This document shows, piece after piece, positions 27,988 through 30,638 of a DNA stretch of 30,638 nt. The translations under genes and the position numbers were made by a program. The notes under the pieces were generated by a model that was not told the DNA's origin, ran no database searches, and saw nothing but the letters and a program-made list of their open reading frames with translations. This DNA comes from Elusimicrobiota bacterium (lineage in GTDB: Bacteria > Elusimicrobiota > Elusimicrobia > Elusimicrobiales > UBA9959): contig JAINCQ010000010.1 of assembly GCA_036574205.1 (NCBI GenBank), positions 1 to 30,638 on the forward strand. The letters are read 5' to 3'. Within the stretch, counting starts at the first letter, position 1; every line of letters starts with the position of its first letter.

Positions 27988-29610
27988 ATGTTGTGGTATA
28001 AAATAAAGCTTTTTTTTAAAAAAAACTGGCTTATAATTTCTATATTATTTTTGGTGATAATTTCTTTTGTAATACCTGTTATATATCTTTCAAAACTTGA
28101 ATCTAATACAAGAAGATACATAATGGGAATAAACATTGCATCAATGCCGTGGGCAGTGCTGCAGACAATTATTTTTGTCGGTTTTTTGTATCTGCTTCAT
28201 TATGGTGGAGGTTTTTCAAGATTTAAAAAAGCTAAAATGAAGTCAGAGAAGGTTAATGTAAGGTTTGGGGATATAATAGGACTTGAACAGGCAAAGCGGG
28301 AAGCATGGGAAGTGGTTCAACTTATAAAAGACAGAAAACGTGTTAAAAGAATTGGTGGAAAAATAATCAAAGGGGTTTTATTAATAGGACCTCCTGGATG
28401 CGGGAAAACAATGCTTGCCAAAGCAATAGCTACAGAATCTGAGGTTCCGCTTCTTTCAGTTGCAGGTTCAGAGTTTGTAGAAGTTTTTGTCGGTGTTGGT
28501 GCTTCAAGAGTCAGAAAATTATTTTCAGAGGCAAGATATACCGCTCATGCTTATGGTGCATGTATAATATTCATAGATGAACTTGAAGTTATTGGTAGAA
28601 GAAGAATTCTTTATGACGCTTTTGGCGGAGGTTCTGAGACAAATTCAACCCAGAATCAGCTTTTGGTTGAAATGGATGGACTTAATGACGATGACGCAAA
28701 TGTTATAGTTTTTGGCGCAACAAATGCAATTGAAGAAATTTTAGACGAAGCGCTTTTAAGACCGGGAAGATTTGACAGGAAAATATTTATTGGAAAACCA
28801 AATTTAATGGAAAGGGAGCAATTATTTGCCTACTATTTAAGTAAGGTTAAATACGATCCTGCTATAGATATCCCAAGACTTGCAAGAAAAGCTGTTTACA
28901 AAACTCCTGCTGAAATAGAAAATATAGTCAAAGAAGCGGCTCTAATAGCTGCGAGAAACAACAGAGAGATGGTTGTATACAGCGATATAACTCAGGCTAT
29001 AGAGAGAATAGAATTGGGATTTGCCCACAAGCTTGTAATGACTCCAAAAGAAAGGGAGATGACAGCCTATCATGAAGCGGGGCATCTTGTTGTATTATAT
29101 CTCAGTCATCCAACAAGAGATGTTTTTAAGGTATCAATACTCAACCGTGGCGGAGTTTTAGGGGTGGTTCATTCAATACCCAAAGAAGAACTATTTACAC
29201 AGGATAAAAACGCGCTTTTGGCTAATATCAGGGTTTCGCTTGCTGGATATGTAGCAGAGCTTATAAAATACAACAGCACAAGCGATGGGGTATCTTCGGA
29301 TTTTGCTAAAGCAACAGGTATTGCTCATAATATGGTCTGGAGATTAGGAATGGGAATAAATGGATATATAGGAGATTTCAGTATAATTCCAGAGAAAGAG
29401 CTTTCTACTCTAATGGCGTCAAAACTTAATGATGAGACTGCTGAAATAATAAAAAGAGAAAAAACTTCAGCTGAAAAAATATTAAAAGAAAACTGGAATA
29501 TAGTTGAAGAATTTGTGGCTCTTCTACTTGAAAAAGACGAACTTGAATATGACGAAATAGTGGAGGTTTTCAAAAAGCATGGGATTGAAAAAACTCCACT
29601 GATTACCTAA
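27988..29610 (+). CDS. FtsH-family ATP-dependent zinc metalloprotease paralogue lacking the periplasmic domain
   Basis: Two TM helices with a short loop; Walker A GPPGCGKT, pore FVEVFVG, Walker B IIFIDE, LLRPGRFDR, HEAGH, GVSSD; start moved to ATG 27988. Confidence 0.92.
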   Translation: MLWYKIKLFFKKNWLIISILFLVIISFVIPVIYLSKLESNTRRYIMGINIASMPWAVLQTIIFVGFLYLLHYGGGFSRFKKAKMKSEKVNVRFGDIIGLEQAKREAWEVVQLIKDRKRVKRIGGKIIKGVLLIGPPGCGKTMLAKAIATESEVPLLSVAGSEFVEVFVGVGASRVRKLFSEARYTAHAYGACIIFIDELEVIGRRRILYDAFGGGSETNSTQNQLLVEMDGLNDDDANVIVFGATNAIEEILDEALLRPGRFDRKIFIGKPNLMEREQLFAYYLSKVKYDPAIDIPRLARKAVYKTPAEIENIVKEAALIAARNNREMVVYSDITQAIERIELGFAHKLVMTPKEREMTAYHEAGHLVVLYLSHPTRDVFKVSILNRGGVLGVVHSIPKEELFTQDKNALLANIRVSLAGYVAELIKYNSTSDGVSSDFAKATGIAHNMVWRLGMGINGYIGDFSIIPEKELSTLMASKLNDETAEIIKREKTSAEKILKENWNIVEEFVALLLEKDELEYDEIVEVFKKHGIEKTPLIT

Positions 29611-29829
29611 AATTTGATTTAGCATAGTGTTTTTTTATCTTAAATAAGATTTTAACTTGATTTATCAACCCAATTTACCAATAATAGAATAAATTGATAT
29701 AACGAAAAATTATAAAACATTAAAAATTTAATAAACTATATATATAGTGTTTGTAAATTTACTTTAATAATGGTTCACTAATTTTTTAATAAGAAAATTT
29801 TCTTATTATTGTAGCTCTTGCTTTGCTTA

Positions 29830-30185
29830 TTGAAAGACATATTAGAACTGGATAAACATTAAGTTTAATGGAGGGATGGCTGCGCTCGACTTGTCGTGGG
29901 TTAAATGCGGAGGGAGAGTTTGGCGCGGAGTCGCCAACGCGGGTACCGCGAAGCAAGAAAGTTTTGAAGACTAAATTTTTATTGAAAGACAGATTAGAAC
30001 TGGATAAACATTAAGTTTAATGGAGGGATGGCTGTGCTCGACTTAGCGTGGGTTGAAAGCTTGGGAGAGTTTGGCGCGGAGTCGCCAACGCGGGTACCGC
30101 GAAGCAAGAAAGTTTTGAAGACTAAATTTTTGTTGAAAGACAGATTAGAACTGGATAAACATTAAGTTTAATGGAGGGATGGCTG
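29830..30185 (+). repeat. tandem repeat, period 152/151 bp: three copies of a 53-bp tRNA leader + tRNA 5' end, separated by two related cassettes
   Basis: TTGAAAGACA(T/G)ATTAGAACTGGATAAACATTAAGTTTAATGGAGGGATGGCTG at 29830-29882, 29982-30034 and 30133-30185. Confidence 0.95.
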
Positions 30186-30259
30186 AGCGGTCTAAAGCGC
30201 CGGTCTCGAAAACCGGTAGACGCCTTCGCGTCTCGTGGGTTCGAATCCCACTCCCTCCG
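30173..30259 (+). tRNA. tRNA-Ser(CGA), CCA not encoded
   Basis: Acceptor GGAGGGA/TCCCTCC with discriminator G; anticodon stem CCGGT/ACCGG, loop CTCGAAA (CGA at 30207-30209); long variable arm AGACGC..GCGTCT; T arm GTGGG-TTCGAAT-CCCAC. Confidence 0.97.
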
Positions 30260-30437
30260 TGCTTTACTAAGAAATGCGTTAAGCATTTCGCGGGGATTCG
30301 AAAGCCCGCAGCAAAACCTGGGCATACAGTTTTGCGAGGGGCGGCCCGCGAAAAATTTTGCGGTGAGCAAAATTTATTTGTGGGAGAATCCCACTCCCTC
30401 CGTGCTTTACTAAGAAATGCGTTAAGCATTTCGCGGG
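30243..30437 (+). repeat. 52-bp exact direct repeat of the tRNA 3' end plus trailer hairpin
   Basis: GAATCCCACTCCCTCCGTGCTTTACTAAGAAATGCGTTAAGCATTTCGCGGG at 30243-30294 and 30386-30437 (offset 143). Confidence 0.95.
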
Positions 30438-30439
30438 TG

Positions 30440-30638
30440 AGGACTGCCTTTAGAGCGAAACCTAAACGGTTTCGCGTGCAGTCCGCAAGGCCGGAGTTCG
30501 CCTTGGGCATTCAGGCGAACGAGGCGGGGTCGCGCAAGCCGTCAAGGCTATGCGTGACAGGACTGCCTTTAGAGCGAAACCTAAACGGTTTCGCGTGCAG
30601 TCCGCAAGGCCGGAGTTCGCCTTGGGCATTCAGGCGAA
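30440..30638. repeat. GC-rich 119-bp-period multi-hairpin tandem repeat (REP/BIME-like), cut by the window end
   Basis: 30440-30519 is identical to 30559-30638; stems GGACTGC/GCAGTCC, GCGAAACC/GGTTTCGC, GTTCGCCT/AGGCGAAC, GTCGCGCA/TGCGTGAC. Confidence 0.92.

Follow-up and report, generated by a model that had tools for sequence, protein, structure and literature searches.

A tRNA-Ser gene in a probable array of non-coding RNA modules, RtT-like on the 3′ side, in an Elusimicrobiota genome

The tRNA-Ser(CGA) locus

The window analysed here is an entire contig of 30,638 bp (JAINCQ010000010.1; C43) from the draft genome of an Elusimicrobiota bacterium (G000; 1.85 Mb, 43 contigs, 31.4% G+C). The sole tRNA gene of the contig, tRNA-Ser(CGA), is flanked on both sides by repeats of its own ends. 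On the 5′ side, a 53-nt unit comprising a 40-nt leader and tRNA positions 1–13 occurs three times in register, with spacings of 152 and 151 nt; the extended copies identified by repeat search span 29827–29908, 29979–30060 and 30130–30211. On the 3′ side, a 52-nt unit comprising tRNA positions 57–73 and a 35-nt trailer occurs twice (30243–30294 and 30386–30437) with 100% identity. The copies are separated by cassettes, two upstream of the gene (A1 and A2) and one downstream of it. On balance, we favour the reading that this locus is a tRNA gene within an array of non-coding RNA modules, and that the array has on its 3′ side an architecture like that of the RtT repeats of Escherichia coli.

The gene was placed at 30172–30260 by ARAGORN and at 30173–30259 by the Rfam tRNA model (62.1 bits). 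The three and two copies of the repeats, the cassette lengths of 99, 98 and 91 nt and the intact tRNA had been described in a prior interpretation made from the letters alone (hereafter the sequence-only reading), and all of these hold under repeat searching, BLAST and the two tRNA predictors (Table 1). The array region has a G+C content of 41–57%, against approximately 17–30% immediately upstream. Towards the contig end, an 87-nt element occurs twice, 119 nt apart, within 30433–30638, and the contig end falls inside it.

Among public DNA runs, the stretch is present in one only, a hot-spring metagenome represented by Logan contigs. Unitigs of this run match 29853–29940, 30005–30092, 30064–30173 and 30156–30272 with no differences, so both variants of the 5′ cassette and the cassette/leader/tRNA junctions are present in the reads. 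The run may be the source sample of the window itself, which makes the unitigs weak independent support, and they cover junctions and cassette variants, with the copy number of the tandem units beyond their reach short of long reads. The concern of the sequence-only reading about assembly is thereby eased for the junctions to that limited degree. Two apparent joints, 30008>30232 and 30337>30432 (one contig each, 90% likeness), were set aside as most likely deriving from paralogous loci.

Table 1. Coordinates of the features of the tRNA-Ser(CGA) array in the window
Feature	Position	Strand	Basis or remark
AT-rich stretch with the only sigma-70-like promoter matches of the region	29657..29748	+	upstream of the array
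5′ unit copy 1 (leader and copy of tRNA 1–13)	29830..29882	+	52/53 against copies 2 and 3 (BLAST)
5′ cassette A1, 99 nt	29883..29981	+	BLAST
5′ unit copy 2	29982..30034	+	53/53 against copy 3 (BLAST)
5′ cassette A2, 98 nt	30035..30132	+	BLAST; unitig 30005–30092
Third 40-nt leader, in front of the intact tRNA gene	30133..30172	+	repeat search
tRNA-Ser(CGA), intact, no encoded CCA	30173..30259	+	ARAGORN; Rfam
Linker and T hairpin (stem AAAUGC/GCAUUU), predicted start of module unit 1	30260..30292	+	consensus fold
Left arm, predicted 5′ strand of closing helix P1, complementary to tRNA 57–63	30293..30299	+	consensus fold
B core: junction GAAAG, P2 with hairpin H1, long P3/H2 with GGUGA loop	30300..30385	+	nhmmer 30300–30384
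'e', exact copy (17/17) of tRNA 57–73; 57–63 form the predicted P1 3′ strand, 64–73 the unpaired acceptor-like tail	30386..30402	+	
Second T hairpin, start of module unit 2	30403..30437	+	35/35 against 30260–30294 (family D4)
C-S modules (1.7 copies of a 119-nt period), truncated where the contig stops	30438..30638	+	parallels on C7, C3 and C25

The 3′ module across the genome

BLAST places the 91-nt 3′ cassette and the 87-nt element among dispersed genomic repeats that often lie at contig ends. A profile search of the genome with the core of the 3′ cassette returned 32 copies, of which 28 are downstream of a tRNA gene on the same strand, at a distance of 28–424 nt and behind 21 of the 43 tRNA genes. 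The remaining four sit at the edges of contigs, the assembly not extending to their tRNA side; the search gave no copy elsewhere. An exact 17-nt copy of positions 57–73 of the preceding tRNA follows 15 of the 28 cores, and a copy with one mismatch follows one more. The exact copies are those of tRNA-Ser(CGA), Ser(TGA), Ser(GCT), Leu(GAG) (two cores), His, Arg(TCT), Glu(CTC), Glu(TTC), Asp (two cores), Gly(TCC), Gly(CCC), Tyr and Val(GAC). The ends of non-cognate tRNAs mostly differ from the copies at four or more positions, the exception being near-identical isoacceptors. At two of the four contig-edge cores, the exact ends of tRNA-Glu(CTC) and tRNA-Asn follow.

CCA is encoded by one of the 43 tRNA genes, tRNA-Arg(GCG). 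This gene has no unit here; its CCA-less counterparts in two relatives carry units.

A unit of another kind was observed downstream of tRNA-Gly(CCC) on contig C31 (34792–34862, minus strand), where two tandem 56-nt units precede a normal unit. Each is composed of the reverse complement of anticodon-arm positions 27–36, 24 nt, and a copy of tRNA positions 52–73.

Fold and covariation of the 3′ unit

Each 3′ unit comprises a linker, a T hairpin, an arm facing positions 57–63, a core of approximately 85 nt with two helical domains, and the copy of positions 57–73. In every unit, the short arm is tRNA-specific and directly precedes the constant core, which starts with GAAAG. The arm is composed of the last 3–4 nt of the 5′ strand of the T-stem and 4 nt complementary to positions 57–60, and these four change with the loop (ATTC/GAAT, ACTC/GAGT, AATC/GATT and ATTT/AAAT).

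A consensus fold was determined with RNAalifold from an alignment of 28 units from five genomes (this genome contributes 12, and loci of four relatives 16). It has 39 pairs, with compensatory changes in 25 of them. The predicted order is the T hairpin, helix P1 (the arm paired with positions 57–63 of the copy), the GAAAG junction, P2 with hairpin H1, P3 with hairpin H2 and its GGUGA loop, and a free tail of positions 64–73; these free 10 nt correspond to the 3′ strand of the acceptor stem and the discriminator. On a structure-blind MAFFT alignment, 96.8% of the cells are paired, compared with 83.4% in shuffled and 31–51% in slid controls, and 25 pairs show double changes, compared with 14.5 ± 1.6 in shuffled alignments (none of 500 reaching 25) and 5–8 in slid ones. 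The T hairpin (helix 1) has changes on both sides in five of its seven pairs. In P1 (helix 2), 98.5% of the cells are paired, and four of seven pairs change on both sides in step with the tRNA. Folded alone, the unit of the window adopts the consensus structure (−57.9 kcal/mol, z-score of −4.56, none of 200 shuffles as good).

In this fold, the core is closed by pairing of the arm with the initial 7 nt of the copy, and the tRNA-end copy is for this reason taken to be a built-in part of the RNA. The left edge of the duplicated tRNA end is always T-loop position 57. Its right edge is variable, and ranges from the discriminator alone (tRNA-Tyr) to the whole of the next T hairpin at the window locus, approximately 40 nt beyond. 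A fixed left edge combined with a variable right edge fits tandem units that each end with a tRNA-end copy. In the modelled fold, then, the duplicated tRNA end is a strand of the closing helix together with the tail of the module, and not a by-product of insertion. The sequence-only reading had proposed small, non-coding, structured elements at tRNA termini, which describes the 3′ cassette well, and had regarded the repeated ends as long target-site duplications, an idea that does not fit the edges and the covarying helix.

Distribution among relatives

Modules of this kind extend well beyond the window. A 24-nt core pattern was found at five loci in a named genome collection, all in records of metagenome-assembled genomes labelled Elusimicrobia, Elusimicrobiales or Elusimicrobium. 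With a covariance model of the 28 aligned units, matches were obtained in 41 of 80 genomes of the same family, in nine of 13 genera, and in 53 of 151 genomes in a sample of the phylum (E ≤ 1e-4). The carriers in the phylum sample include 39 of the 45 genomes of a second family, and six other families contribute one genome each. Beyond this genus and its nearest kin, carriers have mostly one to a few listed copies per genome, some up to about ten; two AT-rich genomes of this genus have many copies, about 30 each.

Among the 54 distant units taken from the best-scoring matches, 47 lie at most 450 nt downstream of a same-strand tRNA gene. The 17-nt copy has no mismatch to that tRNA in 21 of these 47, one in seven and more in 19. 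tRNA-Ser is the most frequent host (25 of the 47 tRNAs). Cognate copies likewise occur at other tRNAs in relatives, and the copy includes CCA where the tRNA gene of the relative encodes it. The copy also follows a difference between two species of one genus: the acceptor strands of tRNA-Arg(TCG) read AGGGGGC at locus L083 and AGAGGGC at L084, and the copy in each unit tracks its own tRNA there. At loci L089–L093 of the second family, which were read base by base, the unit usually follows the terminator hairpin of the tRNA.

Some units also copy the 5′ strand of the acceptor stem, and are predicted to fold with an acceptor-like stem that is stacked on P1 and has an ACCA end. Such cases are L091 behind tRNA-Tyr (8-bp stem), L089, L088 and the tRNA-Met units of two species; the unit of the window and most units of this genome have no 5′-strand copy. 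An exact 5′-strand match of at least 6 nt is present in eight of the 47 distant units, compared with 7% of non-cognate control pairs. The 5′-strand copy was rejected as a general feature, as this enrichment is weak and the tRNA-Ser cases are confounded by a conserved GGAGC beside the T hairpin.

Occupancy varies between members of the genus. In two other genomes of it, tRNA-Ser(CGA) stands without a unit, which supplies the empty-site alleles that the sequence-only reading had named as support. tRNA-Met, Val(TAC), Val(CAC), Arg(GCG) and Pro(GGG) are followed by units in same-genus relatives and by none here.

Further observations were made at individual loci of relatives. At L092, behind tRNA-Pro(CGG) of a distant relative, CCA is present after the copy in the unit and absent after the tRNA gene, with a fragment ...CCGCCGCCCCGACCA downstream; either the gene lost its CCA after the copying, or mature tRNA was the source. 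Beyond the units of L089 and L092, at two different tRNA loci in two genomes, lies a conserved stretch of approximately 100 nt (...CGGTCGGATACCTCCGCGCTA.CGCGCG...), enclosed by a long terminator-like inverted repeat. At L085 and L006, behind tRNA-Ala(GGC) of GC-rich relatives, the 5′-strand copy reads GGACGTG where the tRNA has GGGCGTG, which would replace the G3:U70 pair of tRNA-Ala by A3:U70 in the mimic; at these loci, the 3′ copy has a decayed tail.

Comparison with known RNAs and repeats

RtT is a one-locus curiosity of enterobacteria, described decades ago and, to our knowledge, without an accepted function to date. In E. coli K-12, the tyrT-tyrV locus contains four RtT units of approximately 178 nt, three after tyrV and one between tyrT and tyrV. 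Each ends in the 3′ end of tRNA-Tyr from the T-loop onwards (19/20 nt including CCA), and its upstream arm, GGGGAAGGAU, is complementary to this copy. The consensus of Rfam family RF00391 pairs the GGGGAAGGAU arm with the copy around a multi-helix core and leaves CCACCACCA as a tail.

The Elusimicrobiota module shares this plan. Both kinds of unit lie in tandem directly behind a tRNA gene on the same strand, both finish on a copy of the tRNA 3′ end running from the T-loop, and in both the multi-helix core is closed by an upstream arm paired with this copy, with the acceptor strand left over as a tail. The statement in the sequence-only reading that no case of this design was known is accordingly too strong for the 3′ side, given that the E. 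coli tyrT repeats it mentioned have the same design.

The two differ in sequence, distribution and detail. No sequence or profile similarity between them was detectable: RF00391 (gathering score of 45 bits; 133–138 bits on the E. coli positive control) gave no match at E ≤ 1 in the window (29600–30638) or at L084, L088, L089, L091 and L092, and the best E-value of the 28-unit covariance model at the E. coli tyrT-tyrV locus is 1.4. RtT is confined to tyrT-tyrV in one E. coli record, whereas the module stands behind 21 of 43 tRNA genes here and is spread through the phylum. The closing helix takes in positions 57–63 here, compared with 59–67 or so in E. coli, and RtT is without the additional module types (T hairpin, C-S and D) and the 5′ counterpart at tRNA-Ser. 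By analogy of architecture, the 3′ units would work as RtT does; they are not filed as members of RF00391, because the covariance models fail to match in both directions. A 2024 preprint gives rtT RNA a role in the processing of the tyrT transcript and probably in modulating the stringent response, by a mode of action described there as unknown, and a 2012 paper presents rttR as one of the repeat units.

Across 29600–30638 of the window and the loci of five relatives, Rfam 15 at E ≤ 1 returned only tRNA and sub-threshold chance rows. The acceptor-like stem and 3′ ACCA of the units of some lineages recall tRNA-like RNAs (tmRNA, YrlA and viral tRNA-like ends), from which the module differs in mimicking whichever tRNA adjoins it and in having the core in place of the T-loop. 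The Rfam tRNA, tmRNA and YrlA models gave no match over the units; one sub-threshold YrlA row (23 bits; L092, 1305–1405) covers two tRNA-Pro genes upstream of the unit. Repetitive extragenic palindromic (REP) sequences, bacterial interspersed mosaic elements, BOX elements and miniature inverted-repeat transposable elements (MITEs) are, like the module, short, GC-rich intergenic hairpin modules in mosaic combinations that break assemblies; unlike them, the module is limited to tRNA flanks, has one orientation, contains tRNA-specific segments and adopts a covarying multi-helix fold. The REP likeness belongs to the separate D-type hairpins of this genome, which are not restricted to the neighbourhood of tRNAs. 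Searches of the open literature (subscription journals outside their scope) returned nothing for Elusimicrobia combined with tRNA-like RNAs or RNA motifs, and no tRNA-flanking modules outside E. coli.

The 5′ cassettes

Cassettes A1 and A2 are distinct copies, as their first 29 nt or so differ; their last 69 nt are identical (69/69; 30063–30131 compared with 29912–29980). In this genome, the BLAST matches of each are the other and one copy upstream of tRNA-Ser(TGA) on contig C37; tRNA-Ser(GCT) on contig C8 is preceded by a diverged pair of cassettes. In a second species of the genus, tRNA-Ser(CGA) and tRNA-Ser(TGA) each have one cassette upstream. Each 5′ cassette opens with a 12–13-nt copy of the 5′ end of its own tRNA (0–1 mismatch), and between the two species one hairpin of the cassette is swapped for a different hairpin at an equal position. 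The single-sequence folds of A1 and A2 are no better than those of shuffles (z-scores of −0.5 and −0.6; A1 −0.51), and the five available sequences are too few for covariation.

By sequence search, the range of the 5′ cassette is confined to the tRNA-Ser genes of two genomes of this genus. It is an element separate from the 3′ module. The leader of the second species is not duplicated, and on this account the three 53-nt copies in the window are most simply explained by a recent tandem duplication of a 151–152-nt unit (cassette, leader and positions 1–13). The sequence-only reading had named recurrence of the cassettes beside other tRNAs, each with the end of that tRNA, as support, and had seen the matching duplications at the two ends as one phenomenon. 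Recurrence is borne out for the 3′ cassette (28 of 32 cores behind tRNAs, 15 of 28 with exact copies) and is limited to tRNA-Ser genes for the 5′ cassette; the repeats at both ends are real, and their unity gives way to two separate elements, with tandem duplication accounting for the 53-nt repeat.

Behind tRNA-Ser(GCT) of two same-genus relatives (L139 and L141), tandem units were observed with a hairpin resembling the core of the 5′ cassette (CTCGACTT...GGGAGAG) in the opposite orientation.

Array continuation and transcription signals

Complete arrays on contigs C7, C3 and C25 begin with the tRNA and a unit; in the unit that comes next, one or two C-S modules interrupt the arm, and the core and the copy follow. 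D-type hairpin repeats often finish these arrays. The insertion point of C-S is constant: it comes after the GGG of the arm and before the final four bases (also on C10 and C34). The array of the window stops in the C-S part because the contig ends there and for no other reason. The fold of the C-S module has a z-score of −2.68. The 3′ half of C-S resembles the B core, and C-S looks like a nested derivative of the 3′ module family. A REP-like hairpin (CCTTCCCCCTTGATGGGGGAAGG) was also observed in approximately 25 copies, as was another type of hairpin; these hairpins end many tRNA arrays and occur far from tRNAs as well.

Promoter-like sites at 29657–29685, 29662–29690 and 29720–29748 are all upstream of the first 5′ cassette and are consensus matches only; no terminator-like site was found in 29600–30638. 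From these two observations, we infer a single transcript that would span the cassettes, the tRNA and the units. The duplicated 40-nt leader contains no promoter-like site, and duplication of a promoter by way of the leader was dropped as an explanation for this reason.

Open reading frames (ORFs) of 80–153 codons on both strands overlap the GC-rich repeats at 30122–30637. Given the RNA-type conservation of the repeats, these frames are most likely not genes.

Alternative explanations

A non-autonomous element, mobilised in trans and inserting at the T-loop/3′ end of tRNAs with duplication of the tRNA end, is a possible origin of the modules, albeit one that we consider improbable. The family is dispersed in many copies with a perfect target association, as a mobile element would be, yet it has no MITE-type terminal inverted repeats of its own: the sole inverted repeat around the core is the tRNA-specific pairing of arm and copy, which differs from locus to locus. 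Variable occupancy between species of one genus would also follow from mobility, as would cores that are more similar within a genome than across genomes at the same tRNA; against this, the same units occupy the same tRNA-Met position in two species, which fits vertical descent. The duplications, fixed on the left at position 57 and variable on the right, are unlike those of staggered cuts, and both the copy and its complementary arm would need rewriting at each new tRNA. The unit on contig C1 that bears the end of another tRNA and the nesting of C-S modules at one fixed point of the left arm are further marks of mobility, whereas the copies of the tRNA 5′ strand and of the T-stem strand in the units of some lineages are parts that insertion cannot supply.

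Among the enzymes encoded in this genome, which is 95% complete, none is tied to the modules, and mobilisation in trans as put forward in the sequence-only reading is not supported. No match was found to the reverse transcriptase domain PF00078 or the TnpB-type domain PF07282. Two tyrosine recombinases (PF00589; C32:17511–18038 and C19:136674–137189) are encoded far from any array, and no integrase or other element gene lies beside any array examined. Three Y1 (HUH) ORFs resembling REP-associated tyrosine transposases (RAYT-like; PF01797, 28–38 bits) are present at C7:33381–34088, C7:37015–37686 (one in-frame TGA) and C36:32420–32905. They count for a mobile element, but no link between them and the modules was shown, and they are suspected to go with the REP-like D hairpins.

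As an account of the whole locus, functionless slippage during replication or unequal crossing-over confined to this one place, or an artefact of assembly, is very improbable. The 5′ side, with its folds no better than shuffles, is indeed a simple tandem repeat of 151–152-nt period (two units and the start of a third, 93–100% alike), and the contig ends in repeats; but unitigs cover distinct junctions without a difference, the 5′ cassette recurs with the cognate 12–13-nt tRNA start at other tRNA-Ser genes here and in the second species, and for the 3′ side the explanation is refuted by a cassette that is multi-locus and conserved across the phylum. Integrase scars, in which crossover in the T-loop left the tRNA end as an att duplication and the cassette as the remnant of a lost element, are least probable of all: parts of tRNA 3′ ends from the T-loop onwards are classical att identity blocks, and at several loci the copy is followed by a copy of the trailer of the tRNA itself, but the arrays examined have no integrase or element gene, 91 nt with a conserved non-coding core lie between the repeats of the window, and the presence of the same covarying core of approximately 85 nt at 21 tRNA genes and throughout the phylum, where a scar would not stay conserved, largely refutes them.

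Other candidates were also rejected. The core gave no Rfam match to a ribozyme or omega-RNA and the genome no TnpB, which speaks against a small ribozyme or a TnpB guide; a guide identical to the intact tRNA gene would, moreover, target its own genome. Retro-mobility was rejected as the main route, as there is no reverse transcriptase domain and the copies are without CCA where the gene is without it (L092 excepted). For an intron in the T-loop, the 3′ end of the core is not tRNA-specific and so gives no general bulge-helix-bulge (splicing endonuclease was not searched for).

The reading of the 3′ side as an RtT-like array of modules has points against it as well. Behind twelve of the 28 cores, mostly in the last unit of an array, the tRNA end is decayed or foreign (3–11 mismatches), and many copies of the 3′ unit may, given these ends, be inert. 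The core behind tRNA-Leu(CAA) on contig C1 carries the end of tRNA-Leu(GAG) with one mismatch, a foreign end which suggests that at least one unit moved between loci. Movement of units between tRNA genes has clearly happened at some rate, and the module reading gives no account of how a unit takes on the sequences of a new tRNA. The cores of the 28-unit alignment cluster by genome and not by tRNA, a pattern that fits transposition as well as gene conversion. The cells that covary belong to related sequences and are not independent events; the counts of cognate copies use 17-nt windows set by a T-loop regular expression, which are one base off in some distant loci; and the 54 distant units, being best-scoring matches, are not a random sample. 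No RNA run containing the stretch is listed among the public runs, and transcription, processing and RNA ends are accordingly all read from the DNA.

Discussion

The 3′ cassette of the tRNA-Ser(CGA) locus belongs to a phylum-wide, RtT-like family of structured RNA modules that are tied to tRNA genes and hugely multiplied in this lineage. The units would be transcribed jointly with the tRNA, as suggested by an array with no terminator-like site and by units that begin exactly after the discriminator, and would probably be excised at the A/U-rich linkers and at tRNA-type 3′ ends. Unequal recombination, with the repeated tRNA ends and T hairpins as its substrates, may expand and contract the arrays, and gene conversion may homogenise the cores within one genome. 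Our best guess is that the product is a trailer RNA of the tRNA operon, in which the mimic of the tRNA end would serve as a handle for processing or recognition.

A more general proposal is put forward only tentatively, as we judge it more doubtful than the architecture itself. The modules and E. coli RtT may together represent a widespread, unrecognised class of 'tRNA top-half chimeras' that borrow the acceptor and T-arm strands of the adjoining tRNA. The cognate-specific mimic of the tRNA end would be shown to the tRNA machinery (RNase P or Z, the CCA enzyme or a synthetase) or to the 5′ strand of the cognate tRNA, and the core would carry the function. At tRNA-Ser, the free positions 1–13 of the 5′ cassette and the tail of positions 64–73 of the downstream unit are complementary, and could form a two-piece acceptor stem.

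With the RtT design found in a distant phylum without detectable similarity, RtT-like repeats become a comparative problem, and one hot-spring lineage has such modules behind half of all its tRNA genes. Dozens of natural variants, in which the tRNA-derived strands vary with the tRNA and the core is constant, show which parts matter, and they supply constructs with which processing, binding partners and the influence on tRNA supply can be examined. The covariance model helps to annotate the GC-rich 'junk' at tRNA genes on which assemblies of this phylum break.

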